Assembly: GCA_934096405.1 (NCBI GenBank) | Contig: CAKOLW010000003.1 | Coordinates: 3,282 to 67,281 of the forward strand | DNA length: 64,000 bases | DNA from: an uncultured Bacilli bacterium | GTDB lineage: Bacteria; Bacillota_I; Bacilli_A; RF39; UBA660 | Direction: 5' to 3' | Shown: positions 3,009 to 58,640 of the stretch, piece after piece | Layout of the letters: each line of letters begins with the position of its first letter | Position numbering within the stretch: position 1 is the first letter of the stretch | The notes under the pieces: generated by a model | What the model was told of the DNA's origin: nothing | What the model saw: only the letters and a program-made list of their open reading frames with translations | Databases searched by the model: none | Program-made: the position numbers and the translations under genes

Positions 3009-4418
3009 ATGAAGAAAAGTAAAAAAGGATTTACATTGGTTGAACTATTAGCAGTTATTGCTTTAATAGGAGTAATTATGCTAATAGTTGCACCTAATGT
3101 TATAAGATTGTTTAAAAAGGGAACTAAGTCTGCATTTAAAAATGAAGTATTAACTATATATAATAGTGTGTATCCTACATATTTATCAAGAACTAGTGAT
3201 GGAGATTATTCAACTAGGTTTTGTTTTACACATGGTATAGGTGATTCATTGGATGTAGAAAATAAAGAAAATATTTCTTATGACATTTCTATTGATGATG
3301 ATGGTAATATAACAAAATTTACTGTTATTAATGATGATTATGTATTTAAAGGAAATAAAATTACTAAAAAAGATATTAAATCAAATAATATTAAAGAAAA
3401 AACTAATAGTGATGTAATAATATGTGATAATATACCTTTAACATTGTCACAAGCAATGTTGAGAGATAATCCGACAAGAAACGTAAGAAGTAATAATGAT
3501 GATATAACTGACTTTGTAGGACTATTTACTGAGAATACTACTGGGACATTGTTTACTTCAACAGAAAGTATAAGTGGAATAACTGATGTGCCACAAGAAG
3601 TATACTATTATGCTGGAAATACAACAAATAACTGGGTAAAATTCGGAGGATTTTACTGGAGAATAATAAGAACAAATCATGATGGAAGTGTAAGATTACT
3701 TTACTCCGGAACAAGCTCTGATACAACAAACGGTTATATTGGAACAAGTGCATATAATAGTTCAGCTAATAGCACAAAATATGCGGGATATAAGTATGGA
3801 GAAGATACTTCTTATGATACAATGACAAATAATACAATAGATAGTACAGTAAAAACATATATAGATGCATGGTATAAAAATAATTTAACAAATTATACAA
3901 AATACTTGAGTACAAGTGCAGTATATTGTAATGATAGAGGTATAAGTGGAATATATTCAGCAAGTACTAGATATTATTATGAATCATATACAAGAGCATA
4001 TTCATATTTAACACCAACTTATGATTGTTATAATCAAAAAGATGCGTTTAGTGTAGATAATACAAGTGCTAAATTAAATTACCCAATAGCTTTAATGACA
4101 TTTGATGAAATGTGGTTTGCTGGAAGTTGGAGAAATCCATCATGGAGTAGTCAATATGCTTGGTTACACACAAATAGTAAAGGAAATTCAATCACAGGTA
4201 ATACTAGATGGTGGTCTTTGTCACCTAATCGTTGGGATGGAAAAAATTCTTATCAGTGGAGTTGTGCTTTTGATGGTGATGCATATTTAGCAATGAGTAG
4301 TACAAACTCTAATTATGGTGTCCGTCCTGTAATATCATTAAAATCATGTGCTAAAGTAACAGGAACAGGAACTGCTGATAATCCATATGTAGTGGATGAA
4401 AAAAATTCTTCGTGCTAA
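3009..4418 (+). CDS. Paralog P2: type IV prepilin-leader protein with the conserved core (subtype A)
   Basis: MKKSKKGFTLVELLAVIALIGVIM prepilin leader. The core contains TGTLFTSTESISGITDVPQEVYYYAGNTTNNWVKFG, YWRIIRTNHDGSVRLLY, AVYCNDRG, YPIALMTFDE, WWSLSP, VRPVISLKSC and NPYVVDEKNSSC. Confidence 0.85.
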   Translation: MKKSKKGFTLVELLAVIALIGVIMLIVAPNVIRLFKKGTKSAFKNEVLTIYNSVYPTYLSRTSDGDYSTRFCFTHGIGDSLDVENKENISYDISIDDDGNITKFTVINDDYVFKGNKITKKDIKSNNIKEKTNSDVIICDNIPLTLSQAMLRDNPTRNVRSNNDDITDFVGLFTENTTGTLFTSTESISGITDVPQEVYYYAGNTTNNWVKFGGFYWRIIRTNHDGSVRLLYSGTSSDTTNGYIGTSAYNSSANSTKYAGYKYGEDTSYDTMTNNTIDSTVKTYIDAWYKNNLTNYTKYLSTSAVYCNDRGISGIYSASTRYYYESYTRAYSYLTPTYDCYNQKDAFSVDNTSAKLNYPIALMTFDEMWFAGSWRNPSWSSQYAWLHTNSKGNSITGNTRWWSLSPNRWDGKNSYQWSCAFDGDAYLAMSSTNSNYGVRPVISLKSCAKVTGTGTADNPYVVDEKNSSC

Positions 4419-30502: not shown

Positions 30503-30690
30503 AATTAAAGAGTAAAAAGTAGAAGGAGTACAGAACTATGGAAAGAATAATTCTCTTTGATTTAAGTACCAAACTTGGTACGAATTTCGGGGGGGGTTAA
30601 AAATAATGCCTCTCATAGTTTTTTCGTTATATTAAATTCATAGGCATCAGTCTATGAGTTTTTTAGTGCTCTAAAAAATGGAGGCAAAAG
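30503..30690 (+). promoter_or_regulatory. Conserved 5' leader L1 of paralog P4: short ORF, G8 tract and two terminator-like hairpins
   Basis: TGATAAAAT extended -10 at 30497..30505. The conserved box AATTAAAGAGTAAAAAGTAGAAGGAG precedes a 20-codon ORF at 30538..30600 (MERIILFDLSTKLGTNFGGG). G8 lies at 30589..30596. Hairpin 1 ends CTCATAG plus T6 (30612..30624). Hairpin 2 is TCATAG-gcatcagt-CTATGA plus T6 (30638..30664). The 5' and 3' parts are near-identical to 58724..58908. Confidence 0.6.
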
Positions 30691-32211
30691 ATGAAGGAAA
30701 GAAAATATGCTTTGTTTGGAATAATTACAACAATAATTTTAATAATTGGAACTACACTAGCATACTTTAAATTTCAAGTATTTGGAAATAAAAAAGTAAT
30801 AAATGTGGAATCAACTAACTTACAAATAATATTTAATAATGGAGATAGTACATTTGAAGGAAATGCTTTAGAACCAGGTAATTATGATGAAATAAAGACA
30901 TTTAGTGTTAAAAACGAAACAGATACAGAGTTTAAATATAATATAATAATAAAAGATTTAATAAATACATTTGTAACAAAAGGTTATTTAGTATATAAAA
31001 TAACTAATACATCAAATAATGGAGGATACAGTATGAATGATTTTGAAGATATACCAAAATCATCAATAGCTTTAGATATAGGACTAGCATATAATATAAC
31101 TATTCCATCAGGAGTAACACAGGATTATACTATAGAGATAAAGTATTTAAATGATCCAAGTTATGATCAATCAGATGATATGGAAAAAGAAGTATCAGGA
31201 AGTATTTATATAGCAAAAGGAACAGAACCAACATTTATAACAAAAATATTAGAACAGAATAAAACAATAAGTGAAAGAACTAATTTTAAAGTAACTAATA
31301 CAGATAAAACAACAGGAACAATATATAAAACAAATAAAACAGAAGACTCTAGTGATGTATATTATTATTCAGGTAATACAATAAATAACTGGGTTAAGTT
31401 TGGAAAGTATACAACGGATGATACTTCAAGTAAAAAATTATGGAAATCTGGAGACGATATGTACTGGAGAATAATAAGAACCAATGAAGATGGGAGTGTA
31501 AGACTATTATATTCTGGAACAAGTCCAGATACAACAGAAGGCTATATAGGAACCTCAGCATTTAATAATTCAACTAAAGATCCATTGTATGTAGGTTATA
31601 TGTATGGAACAAGTGGTTCATTAGAAAGTAATAGAACAAATGAAAATGATAGTACAATAAAAACTGTAATTGACAAGTGGTATCAAAATAATTTACTAAA
31701 TGATTATGATAAATATATAAGTAAATCAGCAATATATTGTAATGATAGAAATGCTAGTAATTATGCTTTAGAAGGAACATATTATTCTAGCGCATACAAT
31801 AGAATTGAACAAGGATCGCCTACTTTAAAATGCGAAAATAAAAGTGATTCATTTAGTTATAATAATACAAGTGCAAAATTAAAATATCCTATAGCATTAG
31901 TAACTACAGATGAATTAAATTTTGCTGGAGGATATCTACTTAGAGCTGAAGGCATTTATTTTACAGTTAATAGTAATAATCTTTCAATTACTAATACACT
32001 ATTTTGGTGGACAATGAGTCCTTGGGGACTATACACTACGATAGCAGATACCTTCAGAGTAAAAGATACAGGAGTAATAAATGGAAACAATGTTTCATTT
32101 TTATTTGCAGTTAGACCTGTTATATCTGTATCATCATGTGCAAGAGTTAAATCAGGTAATGGAACAGCAGATAATCCATATGTAGTAGATGAAGAAGCTA
32201 GCACTTGCTAG
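30691..32211 (+). CDS. Paralog P4: TasA/SipW-type signal plus N-terminal domain plus conserved core (mosaic subtype)
   Basis: Signal IIGTTLAYFKFQVFG. The core has TGTIYKTNKTEDSSDVYYYSGNTINNWVKFG, YWRIIRTNEDGSVRLLY, YVGYMYGTSGSLESNRTNEN, AIYCNDRN, YPIALVTTDE, WWTMSP, VRPVISVSSC and NPYVVDEEASTC. Confidence 0.85.
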   Translation: MKERKYALFGIITTIILIIGTTLAYFKFQVFGNKKVINVESTNLQIIFNNGDSTFEGNALEPGNYDEIKTFSVKNETDTEFKYNIIIKDLINTFVTKGYLVYKITNTSNNGGYSMNDFEDIPKSSIALDIGLAYNITIPSGVTQDYTIEIKYLNDPSYDQSDDMEKEVSGSIYIAKGTEPTFITKILEQNKTISERTNFKVTNTDKTTGTIYKTNKTEDSSDVYYYSGNTINNWVKFGKYTTDDTSSKKLWKSGDDMYWRIIRTNEDGSVRLLYSGTSPDTTEGYIGTSAFNNSTKDPLYVGYMYGTSGSLESNRTNENDSTIKTVIDKWYQNNLLNDYDKYISKSAIYCNDRNASNYALEGTYYSSAYNRIEQGSPTLKCENKSDSFSYNNTSAKLKYPIALVTTDELNFAGGYLLRAEGIYFTVNSNNLSITNTLFWWTMSPWGLYTTIADTFRVKDTGVINGNNVSFLFAVRPVISVSSCARVKSGNGTADNPYVVDEEASTC

Positions 32212-32263
32212 GATGAAATGTTTGTAAAACTTATAAAAAATGTTATAATTTACTTGACAAAGC

Positions 32264-32292
32264 ATACTAATTATTGTATTATTTAATACGTA
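32264..32292 (+). promoter_or_regulatory. Sigma-A-type promoter of the infC-rpmI-rplT operon
   Basis: TTGACA (32264..32269), 17 nt spacer, TATTAT (32287..32292). A TGTTATAAT extended -10 also lies at 32241..32249. Confidence 0.55.
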
Positions 32293-32299
32293 GAAAAGA

Positions 32300-32400
32300 G
32301 AAAGAAGTGTATCCACACTCACCTGACTGACTAAGTTGGTAGGTAAAATGCTTAATATTGTTTAAGTTTTTAGAGTGGATACGTTTGTATTCACTTTTTA
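32300..32400 (+). promoter_or_regulatory. Probable ribosomal protein L20 leader
   Basis: The position upstream of infC matches Firmicute L20 leaders. A long helix GTATCCACACTC...GAGTGGATAC encloses ACCTGACTGACTAAGTTGGTAGGT. It is followed by GTATTCACTTTTT, which can pair alternatively with upstream AAGTG. Confidence 0.5.
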
Positions 32401-32421
32401 TTATATGTGGAGGTGTTTAGT

Positions 32422-32940
32422 ATAGCTAAACAAGATAATGTTCTTATAAATGAACAAATTAAATTTAACGAAGTAATGGTAATTGGACCTAATGGAGAAA
32501 AATTAGGTGTCAAAAAAATTGAGGATGCTAGAACTTTAGCTAATTATGCTGGACTGGATTTAGTTTTAATGAGTTCATCAGGTATGCCTGTATGTAAAGT
32601 TATAGACTATAATAAGTTTAAGTATGAGAAAACTAAAAAGGAAAAAGAAGCTAAAAAAAGACAAAGAGAACAAAACTTAGAATTAAAAGAGTATCGTTTG
32701 AGCGTTACTATTGATGTTCATGACTTTGAAACTAAACTTAAAAATGCTAGAAGTTATGTAGAAAAAGGTCATAAAGTAAAAGTATCAGTGAGATTTAAAG
32801 GTAGACAAATAGCACATCCAGAGCTTGGAAAAGATGTTATTGTTAGATTTGCTGATAGACTAAGTGATGTTGGAGAAATTAGCGAATTACCAAAACTTGA
32901 GGGAAGAAGTATAAGTTTAGTCGTAGCACCTAAAAAATAA
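32422..32940 (+). CDS. infC: Translation initiation factor IF-3, probable non-canonical ATA start
   Basis: IAKQDNVLINEQIKFNEVMVIGPNGEKLGV is a canonical IF-3 N-terminus. GGAGGTG (32409..32415) lies 6 nt upstream of the in-frame ATA at 32422. The track's GTG at 32407 sits inside that SD and has no SD of its own. Confidence 0.85.
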   Translation: MAKQDNVLINEQIKFNEVMVIGPNGEKLGVKKIEDARTLANYAGLDLVLMSSSGMPVCKVIDYNKFKYEKTKKEKEAKKRQREQNLELKEYRLSVTIDVHDFETKLKNARSYVEKGHKVKVSVRFKGRQIAHPELGKDVIVRFADRLSDVGEISELPKLEGRSISLVVAPKK

Positions 32941-32956
32941 AGAAGGAGAGATAAAT

Positions 32957-33151
32957 ATGCCAAAACAAAAGACACATAAAGGAATAGCTAAAAAAGTAAC
33001 TAAAAGAAATAGTGGAAGTCTTAAAATAGGACATCCAGGAGCAAACCATAAAACAGGAAAGAAACCAACAAGTTTCAATAGAAATCATAGAGAACAAAGC
33101 ACATTAAGTAGTGCTGATATGAACAGATATAAGAAAGCGTTAAGGGGGTAA
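32957..33151 (+). CDS. rpmI: 50S ribosomal protein L35
   Basis: MPKQKTHKGIAKKVTKR...; conserved operon position. Confidence 0.95.
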   Translation: MPKQKTHKGIAKKVTKRNSGSLKIGHPGANHKTGKKPTSFNRNHREQSTLSSADMNRYKKALRG

Positions 33152-33156
33152 TGTAG

Positions 33157-33687
33157 ATGACAAGAGTTAAAGGCGGAACTGTAACAAGAGCAAGAAGAAA
33201 AAAAGTATTAAAACAAGCAAAAGGATATTTTGGAAGTAAACATAGACTATATAAAACTGCTCAAGAACAATTAATGCATAGTGGTAGATATAGTTTCAAT
33301 GATAGAAAGAAAAATAAGGGTAACTTTAGAAAAATTTGGATTACAAGAATTAATGCTGCTTGTAGAATGAATGACATTAGTTATAGTAAGTTTATAGATG
33401 GACTTAATAAAGCTGGTGTTGAAATTAACAGAAAGATGTTAAGTGAATTAGCAATCCAAGATATGAATGAATTTACTAAATTAGTAAATATTGCTAAAGA
33501 TGCTTTAAATGGTAAAGTAAAAAAAGCTGTAGAAACTAAAGAAGTAAAAAGTGAAGTTAAAAAAGAAACTAAGAAAGATGGTTTAGAATCTAAAACAGTT
33601 GCTGAATTAAAAGAATTAGCTAAAGAAAAAGGAATTGAAGGTTACACTACAATGAAAAAAGCAGATTTATTAAATGCTTTAAAGTAG
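33157..33687 (+). CDS. rplT: 50S ribosomal protein L20 with a C-terminal Lys/Glu linker and Rho_N/SAP-like extension
   Basis: The L20 core is [32 protein letters not shown]...NIAKDAL (about 118 aa). It is followed by [21 protein letters not shown] and then [33 protein letters not shown]. Confidence 0.9.
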
Positions 33688-33764
33688 AAAAGTAATCTTC
33701 TTTTTTATGTAGGAAGTATTGAAGTTTATGGTTTCTTATGATAAATTATAAGTGAGGAATAATT

Positions 33765-34115
33765 ATGAATATAAAAGATAAATTTAAAATTAAGAAGTTT
33801 TATTTAGAAAAGAAGAAAGAGTTATTACTAAACTTAAAAAAGAATGTTACCTTAATTGATTGTTGTTCACCTAATGGGTATTTTTTGTGCCAACATGAAC
33901 TAAAAGATAGTGTTGTGAATGGGTATTTATATAGTAATATAACGGAAGATGAAATAAAGTATTTAAAAGATTTAGCTGATAGAGATGGTATAAATTTTAA
34001 TGTTAAGTTTTCACCATATAGACCATTTGAATTTGTTGCAACAACTGAATATATAAATAATAATATTGGTTCTTTTAAGAGAAAGAAAGTTAAATATTTT
34101 AATTGTTATTATTAA
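33765..34115 (+). CDS. Small hypothetical protein, tandem paralog A
   Basis: Shares IKKFYLEKKKELLLNLK, EIKYLKDL and KFSPYRP with the next ORF. Confidence 0.5.
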   Translation: MNIKDKFKIKKFYLEKKKELLLNLKKNVTLIDCCSPNGYFLCQHELKDSVVNGYLYSNITEDEIKYLKDLADRDGINFNVKFSPYRPFEFVATTEYINNNIGSFKRKKVKYFNCYY

Positions 34116-34133
34116 TATCAATAAGGATATATT

Positions 34134-34445
34134 ATGAATAAAGAAGAAAAAATTAAAATTAAGAAGTTATATTTGATGATGAAAAAAGAATTACTATTAA
34201 AGTTAAAAGGTAAAGTGAAATGTTATAAATTTGGTAAAAATATATATTTTGTGAAAAATAATTATAAGAATATTAGTGTACAAAAATATTTAACAAGTGA
34301 TTATGAAGAAAAAAATGTAAGATATTTAAAAGAATTAGTAGAAAATAATAATTTATCTTTTCAGATTAAATATTCTCCTTATAGACCAGTTACTATTTCT
34401 CCTACTAGTGAATTTATAAGAAAATATTATAGATTTATAAAATAA
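34134..34445 (+). CDS. Small hypothetical protein, tandem paralog B
   Basis: IKKLYLMMKKELLLKLK, VRYLKEL, KYSPYRP. Confidence 0.5.
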   Translation: MNKEEKIKIKKLYLMMKKELLLKLKGKVKCYKFGKNIYFVKNNYKNISVQKYLTSDYEEKNVRYLKELVENNNLSFQIKYSPYRPVTISPTSEFIRKYYRFIK

Positions 34446-34602
34446 GTGATATTTTTAATAATATTAATGCTAAATTTGTGAAATAAATGCAAAAATGTTA
34501 AAAATAATGAAAATTTATTAAGTTTAAATTCTTATACTTGTATATAAAATTATATATACTATTGAAGAATTTGATATAATGTAATTTATTTTATACAAAG
34601 TA

Positions 34603-34631
34603 TTGACAAACTATACTTTATATGGTACAAT
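34603..34631 (+). promoter_or_regulatory. Sigma-A-type promoter with an extended -10
   Basis: TTGACA (34603..34608), 17 nt spacer ending in TGG, TACAAT (34626..34631). The track's TTG start at 34603 is this -35 hexamer. Confidence 0.65.
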
Positions 34632-34677
34632 TATATCACTTGATGGTAATACACATGTTAAAAAGGGGGAATTAAGA

Positions 34678-35001
34678 ATGTGTACTAATAGTGAAAATCA
34701 AATTAAAATAACTTTAGGAAAGAGAATTTATGAAGTATTAAAAAATGAATATCTTCAATGTTTAAGAACTTATCTTAGAGCTAACAAGAGAGTGGATTTA
34801 AGTGAAATTAATCCAATGGTATCTATTCCTACTGATTTTAGAATAGGTAATGTAGTTATGGATGGACAAGTTCTTGCAGTAACTAAAAAATATATGAATA
34901 TTAATGGACTTGATTTTGAATATATTTATGGTGATGATGGTTACGTATATTTTAATATAAGTTCACTTATAGAAGAAAAAAGTAAAAGTAAAAAGGCCTA
35001 A
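34678..35001 (+). CDS. Hypothetical protein (107 aa)
   Basis: ATG at 34678 (MCTNSENQ) follows AAGGGGGA and lies downstream of the promoter above. Confidence 0.5.
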   Translation: MCTNSENQIKITLGKRIYEVLKNEYLQCLRTYLRANKRVDLSEINPMVSIPTDFRIGNVVMDGQVLAVTKKYMNINGLDFEYIYGDDGYVYFNISSLIEEKSKSKKA

Positions 35002-35018
35002 TCTTGTAGGCCTTTTTT
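34991..35018. terminator. Bidirectional terminator between convergent genes
   Basis: AAAAGGCCTA-atcttg-TAGGCCTTTT, with A/T runs on both sides. It overlaps both stop codons. Confidence 0.8.
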
Positions 35019-36251
35019 GTTAAATTCTTTATGAAGAGCATGTGTACTCCATAATAGAGCATATTTATTTTGATTTATTATAAAATCAAATTCTCCAATG
35101 TATTCAAATACTTTTGGATTCCAACTTAATTTAAAATCATTTAATCCTTTATATGGATTGTTACTATCATTTGTACCAGTTATACCATTTAAATCTAAGA
35201 AACTATAACCATCATTTTTATACTTATTTATAATCATATAATGTAAATAATGATTTGGAAGTAATCTCTTATAACTTTTAATAAATCCACTAGTATATAT
35301 AGTAGCAACATTTTTATATTTTATAACTATTGCACCTGCAACAACTTCTTTAGCTGTTCCCTTTAAAATCTTTTCGTTTACGTCTGTCATTTCATTATTT
35401 AAATCATTAAGTTTTTTATCACTTAATGTTTTTTCATTATAAACTTGTCTATTTTGAGGATCCTGTTGGAATAATTTATTTAATTTTTCATTTATGTCAA
35501 GTTCAATTAAAATTTCTTCTTGGAGATTTTCTAAATATTCATGATATGCTACATCTACTAAATATAAATCAACCATTCCTTTAGCATCAAAAGTTTTATA
35601 CAAGTATTTATAAAAGTCTGGGTTAATATCATCTTTTCTTTTAACTAATTCATATAAATCATTTAAATTATATATATCTCCTTTATATATGTTTAATCCT
35701 TTTTGACCAATTCTTTCTAGGTTAGATTGTAATTTTTTATCTAAGTTATTAAAATTAAAAGTTTTTAAATTTAATATTGGATTATATTTTGGTAATAAAC
35801 TTTCAAAATATATATTATCTTTTAATTTTTGATATTTGTTTTGTACTAAATCAAATATAATATTATTACCAACTTGATTAACTACTTTAGTATTATCTAT
35901 TATATTTACATTGCTATATATAACTAATGGATTTATTTTAATAAAAGCATAGTTCTTTTTATTAAAATATTTTCTTAATGAAGTAGAGAAGTCTTCTAGT
36001 AATTCAGTGTTGGTATAATCAATTAAAAATCCTCTAGGACTATATCCATATTTAACATTTAAAGAAATATTTTTTTCTAATATTAAAGAAGCACCTACAA
36101 GTTCATTATTTATATAACCACCTATATAAATATCTTTATAACCACATTTACTCATAAATTCTCCGTAAGTACTTGTTTCATAAAAACTTCCTAATGGATG
36201 TTTGGATGAAAAATCATCAAAAGTATTCTTGTCTATTTCTTTAATAGTCAT
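34998..36251 (-). CDS. FemAB-family peptidoglycan interpeptide-bridge aminoacyltransferase
   Basis: 417 aa. It has two GNAT-like halves separated by a coiled-coil insert (LENLQEEILIELDINEKLNKL), which is the FemA/FemX/MurM architecture. The N-terminus is FSSKHPLGSFYETSTYGEF. Confidence 0.65.
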   Translation of the reverse strand: MTIKEIDKNTFDDFSSKHPLGSFYETSTYGEFMSKCGYKDIYIGGYINNELVGASLILEKNISLNVKYGYSPRGFLIDYTNTELLEDFSTSLRKYFNKKNYAFIKINPLVIYSNVNIIDNTKVVNQVGNNIIFDLVQNKYQKLKDNIYFESLLPKYNPILNLKTFNFNNLDKKLQSNLERIGQKGLNIYKGDIYNLNDLYELVKRKDDINPDFYKYLYKTFDAKGMVDLYLVDVAYHEYLENLQEEILIELDINEKLNKLFQQDPQNRQVYNEKTLSDKKLNDLNNEMTDVNEKILKGTAKEVVAGAIVIKYKNVATIYTSGFIKSYKRLLPNHYLHYMIINKYKNDGYSFLDLNGITGTNDSNNPYKGLNDFKLSWNPKVFEYIGEFDFIINQNKYALLWSTHALHKEFNKKGLQD

Positions 36252-36350
36252 ACATAATCACTCCTAGTTATGATTATAACATAATTATTAAATTAATTGT
36301 AGTTTTTTCTTTTTTATTATTGTATAATTAAGGTAATAGAAGGTGAATAT

Positions 36351-37592
36351 ATGAGTAAGATAAAAGATGTAGTAGCTAGAGAAATATTAGATTCTAGAGG
36401 TAATCCAACTGTTGAAGTTAAAGTGTTTACTGAAAAGGGAAATGTAGGAGTGTTTAGTGTTCCTAGTGGGGCTTCTACAGGTAAGAAAGAGGCTTTAGAG
36501 TTAAGAGATAATGATGAAAGATATATGGGTAAAGGTGTTTTAAAAGCAGTTAATAACGTAAATAATATAATTAAACCTAGAATAATTGGTATGAATGTAG
36601 AGAATCAAAAGAGTATTGATGAGTTATTAATTAGTTTAGATGGTACACCTAATAAAAGTTATTTAGGGGCTAATAGTATATTAGGAGTTAGTGTAGCGTG
36701 TATAAAAGCATCTAGTTTAGATAATAATGAAGAATTATATAGATATTTAAATAAAAGAGAAGTTAGAGTACCTTACTGTATGTTTAATGTATTAAATGGG
36801 GGTAAACATGCTCCTAATAATGTAGATATACAAGAATTTATGATTGTACCTAAATTTAGTACATTTAAAGAATCTTTAAGAGCTGCTAGTGAAGTATTTC
36901 ATAATTTAAAGAATTTATTAAGTGAAAAAGAATTAGTTACTTCTGTAGGAGATGAGGGTGGTTTTGCACCTGATTTAGAAAATAATGAAGAAGCTTTAAT
37001 GCTAATAGTGAAATCTATTGAAATGGCTGGGTATATACCTGGTAAAAATATATTTATTGCTTTAGATGTAGCGGCTAGTAGTTTTTATAATGAAAATAGT
37101 GATACTTATAAAATTGATAATAAGAATTTAAATAGAGAAGAATTATTGAATTATTATATAGATTTAGTTAAGAAATATCCTATTATAAGTATAGAAGATC
37201 CTTTTGATGAAAATGATAAATTAGGATTTAAGATGATTACTGATTCATTAGGTAAAAAAATAAGTATAGTTGGAGATGACTTATTTGTTACTAATAAAGA
37301 ATTATTAAAAAGTGGAATTGAAGAAGGACTTTGTAATGCTATTATAATTAAACCTAATCAAGTTGGTACTTTTTATGAAACTTTAGAGACTATAGTACTT
37401 GCTAAACAAAATAAATATACTCCTATAGTTAGTCATAGAAGTGGAGAAACAACAGATACTTTTATAAGTGATTTAGCAGTTGCTTTAAATATTCCTTTTA
37501 TGAAGAGTGGTAGTACTTCTAGAGGAGAAAGAATTTGTAAATATAATAGATTATTAGAAATAGAAGAAGAATTAAATAAAAATATTGAATAA
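36351..37592 (+). CDS. eno: Enolase
   Basis: AREILDSRGNPTVEV, SVPSGASTGKKEA, IEDPFDENDK, IKPNQVGT, SHRSGET. Confidence 0.95.
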   Translation: MSKIKDVVAREILDSRGNPTVEVKVFTEKGNVGVFSVPSGASTGKKEALELRDNDERYMGKGVLKAVNNVNNIIKPRIIGMNVENQKSIDELLISLDGTPNKSYLGANSILGVSVACIKASSLDNNEELYRYLNKREVRVPYCMFNVLNGGKHAPNNVDIQEFMIVPKFSTFKESLRAASEVFHNLKNLLSEKELVTSVGDEGGFAPDLENNEEALMLIVKSIEMAGYIPGKNIFIALDVAASSFYNENSDTYKIDNKNLNREELLNYYIDLVKKYPIISIEDPFDENDKLGFKMITDSLGKKISIVGDDLFVTNKELLKSGIEEGLCNAIIIKPNQVGTFYETLETIVLAKQNKYTPIVSHRSGETTDTFISDLAVALNIPFMKSGSTSRGERICKYNRLLEIEEELNKNIE

Positions 37593-44802: not shown

Positions 44803-47800
44803 AGAATAGGAATGATAAAAATGGTTAAAGTAAGAAAGTCTATAATTATATTTGGAATAATATCAATTGGCTTAACTATCTGTTTATTAGGCTCTTTAGA
44901 TAAAAATGAATCTAATAATAAATTAATTGGTATTTTAGAGAATACTACTTCTATAGATAACTATAGTACTGCTTTAACTGTGTTTTATAATTCTTTAGAT
45001 AAGTCTAATAATGAGGACGATAGAAATAAAAATTTATTAGAGACAACTATGTTTAATTGTAATAGTGGTGGATGTACTTCATTAGATAATTTCAAAAATA
45101 TAGGATTTTTAACTAAATATGAATATGATTTAATCGGTGGAGATAATTCATATTTATATAATTATTCTGATTATTATGTAATTAATAATGAAGGTAATAT
45201 TGAATCATTAAGTGGAGATAGTAATAGTGGTATCAGACCAACAGTTTATTTAAATGAAGGAACTAAAGTAACTGGAAGTGGTACAGTTAATGATCCATAT
45301 AAAATAAGTCACTATAAAGATATTAATTTTATTGCTTATACATTTAATGGAAAAGAGACTGATATTAAATATTCAGAATTGATTAAAACTAAAGCAATAA
45401 AGGCAATTAATTGTGAAAATGGAACTAAGGCAACTTGGGATACAGAAGAGAATGTAATAAAATTTAAAGATACAAAAGTACCTGACTTTTGTACTATAGA
45501 TTTTACAGATGGAATACAGATAACTTTAAATGCAACTAATGGAACAGTAATGACACCAGTAACAAGAGTAGTAGCCAATAAAGGTGAAACTACATATACT
45601 GTTACTCCAAATAGTGGTTATAAATTAACTGGTTCAAGTATCAGTTGTGATGGAGGAGCTACTATAGAATTAACTAATAAAGGAGTTAAAATATCTAATA
45701 TAACAAAAAAACAAACATGTAAAATAACATTGACTAAGAGTGGCCCATTCAAAGAAGGAACATTAGCTGAGAAAATATTATTAGATAATTCAAGATTGGC
45801 TTCACGTTCTAATTTCGAAACGTTTGGTGCTACTTTAGATTTGCCAAATATCATTTATACTACCAATAATACTGAAGATGGAAGTACGGTTTATTATTAT
45901 TCAGGCAACAATGCTAACAACTGGATTAAGTTTGGCAAAGAAACAACCGAAGGTCGTTGCACTTATGAAAATGAAGAAGTTTTTTATAGTAAAGAAGGAA
46001 AATATAATAAAATAACTACCGAATCAGAATGTAATTCTAAAACTGTTTGTTTAGAATATGGTAGACCAATATTCTACGATTATAGTTGTAGTGGAACTTA
46101 TTATAATAATACTTATAAAAGGGCTACATGGGTAGCATCCAAATCAAATCAAGATACTTATTGGAGAATAATTCGTACAAACGAAGATGGCGGATTAAGA
46201 TTACTTTATGTCGGTCCTAATCCAGAAACAAAAATGGGATATATTGGTCAAGCACAGTATAATAATACAGGCGATACCATACAAAATACTGATTCTATGT
46301 ATGTAGGATATATGTATGGGACAATTTCAGATAAACGAACTAATACAAATAGTAGTACAATCAAGGAATATTTAGAAAACTGGTATAAAAATAATTTATT
46401 TGCAAAATATGATAAATATATAAGTAAAACAGCAATTTATTGTAATGATAGAAGTTCTACATATGTTTCTGGAAATGGAAGCACTTATTCTTCAAGCACA
46501 AGACTTAATATTTTGTCGCCTTCTTATAGGTGTGGTGATACTGGTTTTGGAACACTTGTTGAAGAATTTCAAGCAATTAACGATAAGTTTAGTGTTAGCA
46601 AGGCTTCAGGTGGTAATGGACAATTAACTTATCCGATTGCATTAATAACTGCTGATGAAATAGCCTTTGCTGGAGGTAGAAACCAAAAATACGATGAGAA
46701 TGATGCATCATTAAATTTTAATAATAAATTATATTATTATGCTAATAGTAATGGAGGAAGTGTGATAGGTGCTAGCAAAAGTTGGTGGACAATGAGTCCA
46801 AATCATGATGGCGCAAGTTATTCAAGTCCATATCATATTCCAACTTTAAAATTAGTAGGGGGATATCAAATTACACAATATACTGGCACTTATTATGGAG
46901 CCTTATATACTGGTTATTCATATGGTGTTGGTTTAGTTCGTCCAGTCATTTCCTTAAAATCTTGTGTTAAATTTAAAAATGGAAATGGAACTTCTGGAAA
47001 TCCATATGAAATTACAATAGATGATGCTTGTGCTAAAGCAGAAAATTAAAAAATAGAATAGGAATGATAAAAATGGTTAAAGTAAGAAAATCTATAATTA
47101 TATTTGGCTTAATATCAATTGGTTTGACTATATGTTTATTAGAGTCTTTAGATAAAAATGAATCTAATAATAAATTAATTGGTATTTTAGAGAATACTAC
47201 TTCTATAGATAACTATAGTACTGCTTTAACTGTGTTTTATAATTCTTTAGATAAGTCTAATAATGAGGACGATAGAAATAAAAATTTATTAGAGACAACT
47301 ATGTTTAATTGTAATAGTGGTGGATGTACTTCATTAGATAATTTCAAAAATATAGGATTTTTAACTAAATATGAATATGATTTAATCGGTGGAGATAATT
47401 CATATTTATATAATTATTCTGATTATTATGTAATTAATAATGAAGGTAATATTGAATCATTAAGTGGAGATAGTAATAGTGGTATCAGACCAACAGTTTA
47501 TTTAAATGAAGGAACTAAAGTAACTGGAAGTGGTACAGTTAATGATCCATATAAAATAAGTCACTATAAAGATATTAATTTTATTGCTTATACATTTAAT
47601 GGAAAAGAGACTGATATTAAATATTCAGAATTGATTAAAACTAAAGCAATAAAGGCAATTAATTGTGAAAATGGAACTAAGGCAACTTGGGATACAGAAG
47701 AGAATGTAATAAAATTTAAAGATACAAAAGTACCTGACTTTTGTACTATAGATTTTACAGATGGAATACAGATAACTTTAAATGCAACTAATGGAACAGT

Positions 47801-48027
47801 AATGACACCAGTAACAAGAGTAGTAGCCAATAAAGGTGAAACTACATATACTGTTACCCCTAATAGTGGTTATAAGTTAGCTAATTCAAGTATCAGTTGT
47901 GATGGAGGAGCTACTATAGAATTAACTAGTACTGGAGTTAAAATATCTAATATAACAAAAACACAAATTTGTAAAATAACATTGACTAAGAGTGGTCCAT
48001 TTAAAGAAGGAACATTAGCTGAGAGAA
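44803..48027 (+). repeat. Tandem direct repeat (unit 2252 bp); the first ~970 bp of each unit are near-identical
   Basis: 44803..45775 aligns with 47055..48027 at a constant offset of 2252. The identical antisense track ORFs 45336..45578 and 47588..47830 show 100% identity across at least 243 nt. Identity decays after GCTGAGA at 45773/48025. Confidence 0.9.
44812..47049 (+). CDS. Paralog P6: TM anchor plus mini-module plus Ig-like repeat plus conserved core with a Cys-rich insert
   Basis: N-terminal TM segment. The mini-module is FLTKYEYDLIGG...GIRPTVYLNEGTKVTGSGTVNDPYKI. Next comes TYTVTPNSGYKL. The core has LAEKILLDN, NNWIKFG, YWRIIRTNEDGGLRLLY, AIYCNDRS, KFSVSKASGGNGQLTYPIALITADE, WWTMSP and VRPVISLKSC. 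The C-terminus is ACAKAEN. The start may be the ATG at 44821. Confidence 0.85.
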   Translation: MIKMVKVRKSIIIFGIISIGLTICLLGSLDKNESNNKLIGILENTTSIDNYSTALTVFYNSLDKSNNEDDRNKNLLETTMFNCNSGGCTSLDNFKNIGFLTKYEYDLIGGDNSYLYNYSDYYVINNEGNIESLSGDSNSGIRPTVYLNEGTKVTGSGTVNDPYKISHYKDINFIAYTFNGKETDIKYSELIKTKAIKAINCENGTKATWDTEENVIKFKDTKVPDFCTIDFTDGIQITLNATNGTVMTPVTRVVANKGETTYTVTPNSGYKLTGSSISCDGGATIELTNKGVKISNITKKQTCKITLTKSGPFKEGTLAEKILLDNSRLASRSNFETFGATLDLPNIIYTTNNTEDGSTVYYYSGNNANNWIKFGKETTEGRCTYENEEVFYSKEGKYNKITTESECNSKTVCLEYGRPIFYDYSCSGTYYNNTYKRATWVASKSNQDTYWRIIRTNEDGGLRLLYVGPNPETKMGYIGQAQYNNTGDTIQNTDSMYVGYMYGTISDKRTNTNSSTIKEYLENWYKNNLFAKYDKYISKTAIYCNDRSSTYVSGNGSTYSSSTRLNILSPSYRCGDTGFGTLVEEFQAINDKFSVSKASGGNGQLTYPIALITADEIAFAGGRNQKYDENDASLNFNNKLYYYANSNGGSVIGASKSWWTMSPNHDGASYSSPYHIPTLKLVGGYQITQYTGTYYGALYTGYSYGVGLVRPVISLKSCVKFKNGNGTSGNPYEITIDDACAKAEN

Positions 48028-49253
48028 TACTTTTAAATAATCCAAATGTAGAGACAAGAAGTGATTTTAGTAATACATTTAATGCCGATTCTTTTAATGT
48101 AAATAAGGGTTTATTTACTATTTATAAGATTTCTAGCACTTCTGGTAATCAAATGACAGAAGATACAGATAATGATGGAATGGGTGAGGATGTATATTAT
48201 TATGCTGGATATACAGTTAATAACTGGGTAAAGTTTGGAACATATCCAACAGATTTATATTATTATAGTTATGTTTTAAATTCACGACTTTATACTGGCT
48301 ATGTTACTTCTAATTCTTCTTGTTGCCCTAGTGGTGTTACTTGTACCTGCAGTAAAATGTATTCTAAAGGTGATGATATTTTATGGAGAATAATTCGTAC
48401 TAATGAAGATGGCGGAGTAAGATTGTTATATACAGGTTTTAAGAATGGCATAATTAATAACGGAGAACTTATACAAAATAATTATACTTATACTATTCCA
48501 GGCTCTAGTGATAAATTTAACGATTTGGGTTATATGTATGGAATGGCTACCAGTTACAATGCGGCAACGATCGAGAACGCTAGACTAAATACTAATGATA
48601 GTGTTCAAAAAAATAGAATTGATACATGGTATCAAAATAATTTATTAAATGATTATGACAAATATATTAGTAAAACAGCTATATATTGTGATGACAGAAG
48701 CATTTCAGTAAGCAATTCAACTGAATGGTTTGGGACAGCTAAAAGATCTAGTAATAATACGCCTTCTTATTTATGCGGTAGCAATGGTACTGGTGGATTA
48801 TTTGAAAGTACTCAGGCAATAGAAGATAAATTTAGTGTAAGCAAAAGTTCTGGAGGAAATGGACAATTAAAATATCCAATTGGAATGATGACTGTTGATG
48901 AAGTTATCTTTGCTGGAGCACAATCTGGAAAAACTTCAGTATCTCCCTATTTTTGGTTGTTAAGAGATAAATATAATCAACAAAGTATGAATTCTTTCCA
49001 ATTATTTAGCTATCGAACTTTTCAAAAAACTACAACTTATGGAATTTATCGTTATATTATGACTCCTATTGTTAATAATAGTTCTAGTTCAATACTTTAT
49101 GATGTTTTAAATACAGATGGTTATACTGGAACTAATGGTTTAAGACCTGTTACTTCATTAAAATCTTGTGTTAAGTGGCTCAAAGGCGACGGTACAGCTA
49201 ACCACCCTTACGAAGTTACAATAGATGCTGCTTGTGCTAACACAGAAAATTAA
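47064..49253 (+). CDS. Paralog P7: tandem copy of P6 with a near-identical N-terminal ~320 aa and a diverged core
   Basis: The first ~320 aa are near-identical to P6. The core has NNWVKFG, LWRIIRTNEDGGVRLLY, AIYCDDRS, KFSVSKSSGGNGQLKYPIGMMTVDE and LRPVTSLKSC. The WWxxSP motif is degenerate. The C-terminus is ACANTEN. Confidence 0.85.
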   Translation: MIKMVKVRKSIIIFGLISIGLTICLLESLDKNESNNKLIGILENTTSIDNYSTALTVFYNSLDKSNNEDDRNKNLLETTMFNCNSGGCTSLDNFKNIGFLTKYEYDLIGGDNSYLYNYSDYYVINNEGNIESLSGDSNSGIRPTVYLNEGTKVTGSGTVNDPYKISHYKDINFIAYTFNGKETDIKYSELIKTKAIKAINCENGTKATWDTEENVIKFKDTKVPDFCTIDFTDGIQITLNATNGTVMTPVTRVVANKGETTYTVTPNSGYKLANSSISCDGGATIELTSTGVKISNITKTQICKITLTKSGPFKEGTLAERILLNNPNVETRSDFSNTFNADSFNVNKGLFTIYKISSTSGNQMTEDTDNDGMGEDVYYYAGYTVNNWVKFGTYPTDLYYYSYVLNSRLYTGYVTSNSSCCPSGVTCTCSKMYSKGDDILWRIIRTNEDGGVRLLYTGFKNGIINNGELIQNNYTYTIPGSSDKFNDLGYMYGMATSYNAATIENARLNTNDSVQKNRIDTWYQNNLLNDYDKYISKTAIYCDDRSISVSNSTEWFGTAKRSSNNTPSYLCGSNGTGGLFESTQAIEDKFSVSKSSGGNGQLKYPIGMMTVDEVIFAGAQSGKTSVSPYFWLLRDKYNQQSMNSFQLFSYRTFQKTTTYGIYRYIMTPIVNNSSSSILYDVLNTDGYTGTNGLRPVTSLKSCVKWLKGDGTANHPYEVTIDAACANTEN

Positions 49254-58166: not shown

Positions 58167-58640
58167 ATGAATAATAATTTAGGTTCATGTGGATGTAGAA
58201 ATTCAAATAATGATGATTGTCAAAATAATTGCATACAAGAAATACTACAAGTAATTAATGTTCTTCAAAATAATGCTTGTCCAGATAATTGTTTAAATTC
58301 TTGTGATAGACCTGCATTAGGTGGAGGCGGAAATTGTGTAGTATGTAATACTAGACCAATAATGCTTTATACTTGTTGTGGAAATGGAACACCTTGGAGT
58401 ATGCCAACAACTAGAACTACAACTGATTGTAATAGTGAAGATGCTACAGGATGCTCAAGTGTATTCAGAGTAGAAAAATGTGATGGATGTTGTTGTACAT
58501 TTAGAGTATTAGCTGCTAATACTGATTCTAGTAGTCCTTATCCATATGTTGCTACTGATTCAATATTTACTATGAATGTTAATTGCATATGCTCATTAAG
58601 ATGTTTAAATGATACTTATGTAGAATGTATATGTGGTTAA
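58167..58640 (+). CDS. Cysteine-rich spore coat/exosporium protein, CotZ/CotY family-like
   Basis: About 26 Cys in 157 aa. The segments IQEILQVINVLQNNACPDNC, NTRPIMLY, SVFRVEKCDGCCCTFRVLA and NCICSLRCLND parallel, from memory, B. subtilis CotZ (EDLQNAVEEDCPTGC, FFRVERVHGSCATLSLL, CFCAINCLN). Confidence 0.6.
   Translation: MNNNLGSCGCRNSNNDDCQNNCIQEILQVINVLQNNACPDNCLNSCDRPALGGGGNCVVCNTRPIMLYTCCGNGTPWSMPTTRTTTDCNSEDATGCSSVFRVEKCDGCCCTFRVLAANTDSSSPYPYVATDSIFTMNVNCICSLRCLNDTYVECICG

Follow-up and report, generated by a model that had tools for sequence, protein, structure and literature searches.

How can a gene match its counterpart in sister strains almost perfectly at both ends and differ from it so strongly in the middle? 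This question is raised by P4, an open reading frame (ORF) in the genome of an uncultured Bacilli bacterium. We analyzed the stretch of 64,000 nucleotides (nt) that contains it, called the window here (C3:3282-67281 of a genome labelled G000, which comprises 1,061,706 bp in 31 contigs with ~25% GC). The window contains eight + strand ORFs, P1-P8, which have a collinear core of ~330 residues in common and are spread among housekeeping genes (nusA/infB, uvrC, polC, cysS, aspS, sigA-like, infC, eno, ileS, queA, dnaG/rpoD, and topA). We believe that P4 is most likely a mosaic allele, built by recombination, of a multi-copy family that probably encodes phase-variable surface proteins. Ancestry switches from segment to segment along the gene at breakpoints that can be located, both alleles of the locus are found in independent assemblies, neighboring paralogs are gained and lost, and a mosaic signal runs through the whole family. 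Codon numbers below are those of P4.

The first-pass annotation of this DNA had suggested comparing strains for shuffled alleles, and such an allele was found. A protein search returned three 564-residue proteins (P0002, P0123, and P0124) with ends identical to those of P4 and a different middle. The 564-residue allele lies upstream of infC in at least nine contigs (L033-L039, L051, and L053) from several human-gut metagenomes, including Hadza samples. The gene order in these contigs is sigma-factor gene, 282-residue ORF, (515-residue paralog), 564-residue gene, infC, rpmI, and rplT, and their downstream flanks are 98.5-99.8% identical to the window. Over codons 1-222, P4 and this allele are 99.6% identical, with one synonymous and one non-synonymous difference in 666 nt (L033; synonymous divergence, dS, 0.007). 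The nucleotide identity is 99% over nt 1-725 of the gene, up to a loop of very different length in the two alleles (Table 1), and 92% over codons 248-354. Codons 355-471 cannot be aligned at the nucleotide level (54-56% in a codon alignment, dS 0.90), and the 564-residue allele contains here a B-type cassette with a GGNG block. From codon 472 the identity returns to 98.6% and remains so through infC. The right junction is located exactly at a conserved AVRPVIS block.

A second comparison is provided by a full-length twin of P4 at C5:22484-24010, with 91% amino acid identity. The identity of P4 to the twin is 100% in codons 1-150 and in the 85 nt at the 3' end of the leader, 90% in codons 355-445, and 68% in codons 446-471 (68-91% along the cassette, with dS 0.33). 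When P4 is treated as the child of the 564-residue allele and the twin, the informative sites are allele-like in codons 156-222 (13/13), twin-like in codons 225-471, and allele-like again in codons 472-504 (24/24). The three-way walk over these sites has a maximum descent of 139 of 224 sites (exact p 1.4e-21), with breakpoints at codons 222-225 and 471/472. The C-terminal tail (codons 472-506) agrees with the L033 allele at 104 of 105 nt, versus 75% identity to the twin. The dS values in the three segments are 0.007, 0.90, and 0 between P4 and the 564-residue allele, and 0.046, 0.33, and 0.59 between P4 and the twin. These segment-wise numbers are impossible from a single genealogy, and P4 is therefore a recombinant mosaic relative to its allele. 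Fast positive selection does not explain the divergence, since dN/dS (the ratio of non-synonymous to synonymous divergence) is ~0.3; it was also rejected as the cause of the cassette difference between P4 and the twin (dN/dS 0.36). In the patchwork zone of codons 223-354, the identity to the 564-residue allele drops from 97% to 88%, the identity to the twin is 95-97% throughout, and the informative sites alternate.

The P4 allele is reproduced by independent MEGAHIT contigs from two other samples, one covering window positions 30896-36440 (L052, 99.96% over 5.5 kb) and the other 31339-33096 (L054, 99.83%). In the latter contig (sample ERZ27287180), a TGA replaces the GGA glycine codon in 'VKFGKYTT' (~codon 238, window ~31402-31404), which could reflect either a sequencing error or a nonsense variant of that population.

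The leader of P4 is itself a hybrid, matching 'leader 1' of the sister strains exactly in the 5' part and the twin's leader exactly from just after the tract of eight G residues (G8) onward. The crossover in this hybrid leader, located by comparison with L036:2396-4398, is close to the G8 tract. The genome contains 22 poly-G tracts of at least seven G, most of them ~95-99 nt upstream of family genes, and G8 leaders precede P4 (95 nt upstream), the twin, and many other copies. From its sequence, a G8 tract that ends a mini-ORF would be a putative slippage-prone expression switch.

Strains with the two alleles also differ in the number of paralogs. Those with the 564-residue allele have an extra 515-residue paralog between the 282-residue ORF and the gene at the P4 locus, and the window is without it. 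The twin site on C5 is empty in three samples that contain the 564-residue allele (ERZ28615654, ERZ28615633, and ERZ27287367). At the empty site the 3HCDH gene is followed directly by a 160-residue gene, with a short terminator-like spacer between them, and the difference amounts to 2,072 bp (C5:22250-24321). Both the twin and its leader belong to this presence/absence polymorphism, and the 308 nt that follow the twin occur only once in the genome. The co-occurrence suggests two haplotypes, one with a single 506-residue gene plus the twin and the other with the 515- and 564-residue genes in tandem and no twin. Contigs L040, L042, L046, and L050, which contain the twin, are 99.8-100% identical to G000. 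L040 was rejected as an independent twin-bearing strain (99.985% identical to G000 over 13.5 kb), and L042, L046, and L050 belong to the same lineage. An unequal crossover between the 515- and 564-residue genes was also rejected as the source of the P4 cassette, as the 515-residue gene is only 52-53% identical to P4 there.

The same kind of evidence is found across the family. A whole-genome profile search with the core found 31 cores in 30 ORFs on 14 contigs, eight of these ORFs being in the window, so that several full-length paralogs are dispersed over the genome. We implemented a 3SEQ-type triplet test with exact p-values, and in 28 of the 31 cores at least one triplet stays significant when Bonferroni-corrected for all 26,970 triplets. 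A copies with clean B tracts give the strongest signals (C27_7896, p 8e-30; C17_21285, p 1.5e-19). The first 522 nt of P8 (58909-59430), a subtype-B copy, are 97.5% identical to the subtype-A paralog C9_29586 (C9:29586-30107), which indicates that this N-terminal module was exchanged across subtypes. P6 and P7 begin with 982 nt of 97.3% identity (44812-45793 and 47064-48045), followed by strongly diverged cores. N-terminal modules are thus exchanged or homogenized independently of the cores and across subtypes, and mosaic alleles produced by recombination between loci or strains are present in the family. P4 is an ordinary member of a generally mosaic family and no special case.

The following mechanism would account for these observations. 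The proteins of the family would be built from a signal anchor, an N-terminal module that can be swapped, and a core similar to the domain DUF6273, with many copies placed behind a leader mini-ORF that ends in G8. RecA-type recombination could find homology in the leader core, the N-terminal module, and the motifs YWRIIRTNEDG, YCNDR, YPIAL, and VRPVIS, and the variable stretches between the conserved blocks would move as cassettes. At the P4 locus, codons 1-222 and 472-506 represent the resident allele, and the internal stretch, above all codons 355-471, has a different ancestry. The exchange would be a homologous recombination, either a non-reciprocal gene conversion between paralogs or the import of a divergent allele from another strain, and its biological role may be variation of the surface ligand-binding or antigenic face. 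A search with the cassette only against 5.8 billion proteins returned the twin as the sole relative (78% amino acid identity), with no other protein above 42%. A recent conversion of P4 by the twin is excluded, because the twin differs by ~10% at the nucleotide level (dS 0.33), far above strain divergence. Two options may be considered. In the first, a divergent P4-type donor outside the sampled sequences would have converted a 564-type gene in the G000 lineage; in the second, two old allelic classes would have been shuffled between strains via the conserved N-terminal half and tail. The first is favored because the 506-residue allele is rare and ectopic scars co-occur with it. Either option is a homologous recombination anchored in conserved blocks.

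The strongest alternative carries the second option to its end, with no paralog conversion at P4 at all. The 506- and 564-residue genes would be two old allelic classes that persist in the population, for instance under frequency-dependent selection, and that ordinary homologous recombination via the conserved N-terminal half and the infC flank has carried from strain to strain; the twin would be an old duplicate of the 506-residue class. We regard this as a real possibility, somewhat short of an even chance. The cassette is indeed old, as its dS to the twin is far above the strain divergence (flank dS 0-0.007), and the flanks are 99.7% identical between strains with different cassettes. Polymorphisms shared in codons 151-222 follow neither allele nor locus boundaries, and the ComG-type pilin-like N-termini encoded on P1 and P2 also fit this alternative. 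It remains a model of recombination, however, and one of the two cassettes would still need an ectopic origin. The hybrid leader and the lost 515-residue paralog indicate ectopic events at the locus itself, clear paralog-to-paralog tracts exist elsewhere in the family, and only two allele classes have been sampled.

The first-pass annotation had offered another account, in which P4 is a direct chimera with a subtype-B front and a subtype-A rear joined by one crossover or conversion; we consider this account unlikely. The two core subtypes on which it was built recur throughout the genome, where 10 of the 31 cores belong to subtype A, 18 to subtype B, and three to neither (P4, the twin, and C12_1), and all motifs that it quoted are present in the P4 ORF. 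The hallmarks of subtype A are TGTLFTSTES, TNHDG, KYxxYKYGED, and LTNYTKYLSTSAVYCNDR, without the GGNG block. P4 does have a subtype-B front: of the 66 nucleotide sites diagnostic for A versus B, an unbroken run of 39 in codons 203-367 is B-type. The rear is a different matter. The 'NTSAKL' signature is present, the GGNGQL block is absent, and P4 is without both B-specific insertions (12 and 3 residues), but the A-like part covers only ~22 codons (~374-395). Within it, 11 of 14 scorable diagnostic sites are A-type, versus 1 of ~45 elsewhere, a clustering with an exact hypergeometric-walk p of 1.2e-6; beyond it, the sites are B-type or unique. Even in this tract, the nucleotide identity of P4 to subtype A (0.63-0.72) barely exceeds that to subtype B (0.56-0.67). 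Codons 396-506 are not A-like and are remote from both subtypes (P4-type stem branch 0.79 in the rear tree versus 0.14 in the front tree), and, measured by path, the closest copies in this part are of subtype B. The similarity between P2 and P3, which had been described as very high at the nucleotide level, is only 84.6% over 123 nt (3524-3646 and 19280-19402), compared with 70% over the remainder of the genes.

An outgroup helps to polarize these differences. The corresponding region of G017, a different genus of the same family, is 'FTCPQ----KNDAFTVSDEEKGNGDLTYP', which is without the 12-residue block, like A and P4, and keeps GNG, like B. About 17 of 36 columns could be polarized in this way, eight of them forming the single 12-residue indel, and the front of the gene stays unrooted. 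Judged from this outgroup sequence, the 12-residue block is a B-derived insertion and its lack is ancestral, and the lack therefore gives no information on affinity to A. By the same comparison, 'NT---SA', the 3-residue deletion with 'SA', is a derived state common to P4-type and subtype A, in favor of the chimera.

Recombination tests and trees were also computed within the genome. With P4 as the child (870 triplets, Bonferroni-corrected), the 3SEQ-type test detected a tract at codons 362-425 on a B background with the A donor C9_29586 (p 1.65e-5, or 0.014 after correction), and stronger signals with P5 (codons 183-283, p 1.5e-8) and with the twin (C-terminal tail, p 6e-8). In maximum-likelihood trees, P4-type falls on the B side of the A split for the front (codons 180-355, support 100/99); for the rear (codons 356-506), it falls on the A side of the B split (support 99/99), and a tree of codons 368-412 puts A copies nearest to P4. 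These front and rear splits are mutually compatible in unrooted trees. The approximately unbiased (AU) test did not reject a front tree in which subtype B is monophyletic to the exclusion of P4-type (p 0.50) or a rear tree in which B and P4-type group together (p 0.30), and there was no rejection for the tract of codons 368-412 alone (p 0.50). The two-partition trees and AU tests thus neither prove nor refute an A x B origin. The tract is also found in the twin, and any such event would be older than the split between P4 and the twin (dS ~0.3). A small and old A-like tract in the P4-type lineage is plausible, and a B-front/A-rear chimera has not been demonstrated. The broader proposal of the first-pass annotation, recombination between paralogs, is supported as far as recombination itself goes. 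Site-order tests within the genome do find P4 mosaic, and the breakpoints set by the strain comparison (~codons 222-250 and 472) differ from the A/B boundary it had inferred.

It is very improbable that P4-type is a third subtype that arose by vertical divergence without recombination and looks mosaic owing to region-specific changes in A and B. The AU results on the front and rear partitions fit such a topology, ((A, C12_1), P4-type, B), and most diagnostic sites in the front are not polarizable. Vertical divergence leaves unexplained the three dS values along one gene relative to its same-locus allele, the three-way signal, and the clustering of A-type states. The allele comparison refutes it for the whole gene, and it stays possible only for the origin of the 22-codon A-like tract. 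Finally, there is next to no chance that P4 is an assembly artefact, a contig jumping between the twin and the true infC-locus gene via their identical N-terminal halves and leader ends, even with several family genes at contig ends, as the P4 cassette differs by ~10% from the twin and so is not a copied assembly-graph path, the two contigs from other samples repeat the path from N-terminal half through cassette and tail to infC, and the right junction shares no long identical k-mer with the twin.

The protein itself can be described in part. Pfam and NCBIfam profiles recognized prepilin-type N-termini in P1 and P2 only (N_methyl, PF07963; E 2e-7 to 5e-7); the prepilin cleavage/methylation motif of PF07963 is absent from P4, which has a different anchor (…GTTLAYF…). 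P3 reaches 19.5 bits against DUF6273 (PF19789), below the cut-off of 23.5, and many 800-residue database relatives have a precomputed PF19789 match. In the AlphaFold2 model of full-length P4 (predicted local distance difference test score, pLDDT, 83.9), a hydrophobic helix at the N-terminus (residues 2-30) is followed by a beta-sandwich module that extends to ~residue 176 and then by a core of mixed alpha/beta structure. A structure prediction of the core only was discarded for its low confidence (pLDDT 56.8). When compared with BFVD, the full-length model matched several 'DUF6273 domain-containing' phage proteins (E 1.3e-4 to 1.7e-3, target-normalized template modeling score, TM-score, up to 0.54). 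Against the PDB there was no lectin match, and weak partners were found for the N-terminal sandwich only (carbohydrate-binding modules; the TasA fibre, E 6e-3). Published work describes DUF6273 as C-type-lectin-like and names it as a target of diversity-generating retroelements (DGRs) in gut phages (PMC10743442). Based on the PF19789 matches of the relatives, the BFVD matches of the model, and this literature, we infer that the family consists of anchored or secreted lectin-like proteins. The core is probably DUF6273-like and C-type-lectin-like, and its cassette region in P4 may lie on the surface. That the family encodes phase-variable surface proteins is probable from the sequences, the surface part resting on the N-terminal hydrophobic helix and the prepilin-type N-termini of P1 and P2.

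Several points weigh against our reading of P4 as a recombination-built mosaic allele of such a family. Gene conversion in the strict sense calls for a near-identical unchanged donor paralog, and none was found in the genome or among the 5.8 billion proteins. No near-identical donor of the cassette was found, and the derived allele could be the 506- or the 564-residue one. The sequences used for comparison all come from metagenome contigs, and co-occurrence in three samples is the basis for linking the infC locus to the C5 locus. The in-genome AU tests are compatible with a non-recombinant third lineage for the P4-type core, and 3SEQ-type tests can be inflated by region-specific rate differences. 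The P4 core (codons 176-506) matches no Pfam family even at E<=5, and the surface location, phase switching, and ligand binding of the family are putative.

Beyond the P4 locus, the family comprises 16,230 codons or 48.7 kb. Several copies lie at contig ends, with G8 leaders at C13:131, C14:86, C24:11931, C25:11, and C27:70. The leader and N-module repeats cause assembly breaks, and the family may therefore exceed 31 cores. On the - strand of C2 (53604-56339), a 912-residue ORF contains two complete tandem cores, the first of subtype B and the second of subtype A. An in-frame TGA near the 5' end of the family member at C20:8952-10487 (- strand) reduces it to a 402-residue ORF lacking the N-terminal module, and this copy is probably in the off state or a pseudogene. 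A very cysteine-rich ORF of 157 residues at 58167-58640 (MNNNLGSCGCRNSNNDDCQNNC...) immediately precedes the P8 leader. The sister species G001 and G003 have at least 50 core matches each, and G017 has ~30 at 31-34% identity. When an ortholog of P4 was sought in sister species G001-G003, the best match was a B-type copy with 59% identity, and no infC was found within the 1.5-kb flanks of the four best-match loci checked (L002, L003, L009, and L010).

Table 1 Positions in the window of the P4 segments and of the other family members.
Feature	Position	Strand	Description
P1	1544-2998	+	Prepilin-type N-terminus; core listed as subtype B by the first-pass annotation
P2	3009-4418	+	Subtype-A paralog with pilin-type N-terminus; a reference copy for subtype A
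P3	18684-20408	+	Subtype-A core on an N-terminal module type also found in P8 and P4
Leader of P4	30461-30690	+	20-codon mini-ORF at 30538-30600 (MERIILFDLSTKLGTNFGGG, then stop) ending in G8 tract at 30589-30596
P4	30691-32211	+	506-residue family member upstream of infC
P4 codons 1-222	30691-31356	+	Signal anchor, N-terminal beta-sandwich module, and core start (TGTIYKTNKTED...); allelic with the 564-residue allele
P4 codons 223-354	31357-31752	+	Patchwork zone holding the left breakpoint(s)
Variable loop, codons 243-250	31417-31440	+	Inside the patchwork zone; 16 nt here versus 110 nt in the 564-residue allele
P4 codons 355-471	31753-32103	+	Replaced internal cassette, without GGNG block
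A-like tract, codons 374-395	31810-31875	+	QGSPTLKCENKSDSFSYNNTSA; inside the cassette; also in the twin
P4 codons 472-506 and stop codon	32104-32211	+	C-terminal tail (FAVRPVISVSSCARVKSGNGTADNPYVVDEEASTC), allelic with the 564-residue allele; right breakpoint at AVRPVIS
P5	37642-39435	+	Family member
P6	44812-47049	+	Tandem with P7
P7	47064-49253	+	Tandem with P6
P8	58909-60570	+	Subtype-B paralog

Among known systems, the opa genes of Neisseria offer a close parallel. They are also many dispersed full-length paralogs, each with its own slippage-prone repeat able to switch it on or off (the switching being putative here), and they have a conserved framework flanking hypervariable cassettes, sharply different same-locus alleles in close strains, near-identical copies within one genome, and a copy number that varies by locus. 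The host here is different, a Gram-positive-type uncultured gut bacterium with a ~1-Mb genome of 25% GC. Opa is an 8-strand outer-membrane barrel, whereas the present protein would be an anchored DUF6273-like (lectin-like) protein of ~500 residues. The opa repeat is CTCTT in the signal-peptide coding region, versus G8 in a separate upstream mini-ORF, and there are 9-12 opa copies versus ~31 here. Variable surface systems are also found in Mycoplasma, such as mgpB/mgpC of M. genitalium with the MgPar repeats and vlhA of M. synoviae. These systems are similar in having a small AT-rich genome with several percent of its DNA in one surface-protein family, and in making variation by segmental recombination or gene conversion between copies. 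They mostly use one expression site with silent partial donors, whereas every copy of the P4 family is a complete ORF, usually preceded by its own leader, and there is no sequence homology.

Two further systems are similar in single features. The DUF6273 (PF19789) targets of DGRs in gut phages (PMC10743442) appear to have the same core fold class and a diversified ligand-binding face, which is putative in our family. The variation here would come from recombining paralogous cassettes instead, and the genes are chromosomal, among housekeeping operons, and not in phages. In the leader-peptide phase switch of Streptococcus gallolyticus pil1/pil3, a short upstream ORF with a slippage tract precedes surface-protein genes, with a terminator-like hairpin between; the mini-ORF and G8 tract are confirmed upstream of P4. 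That switch concerns expression control and not mosaicism. By analogy, the logic of the P4 family would match that of phase-variable multi-locus antigen families, while host, fold, switch design, and copy number differ.

These observations mean that recombination, not point mutation alone, reshapes a very large, putative surface-protein family in an uncultured, genome-reduced bacterium of the human gut. One locus contains different cassettes in strains that are otherwise at least 99% identical, and neighboring copies come and go; strain-resolved metagenomics will mis-assemble or mis-bin these loci. With 4.6% of a 1-Mb genome spent on them, these genes are candidates for a role in interactions with the host, phages, or the immune system. 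A more far-reaching reading, which we hold only tentatively and think rather less probable than its opposite, is programmed cassette-based variation of antigenicity or ligand specificity: ~31 expressed genes for lectin-like proteins, each under the control of a poly-G leader switch, would continually swap N-terminal modules and binding-face cassettes and be gained and lost between strains. If true, this would be a recombination-driven counterpart of DGR diversification on this fold, in a lineage without a described system of this kind.

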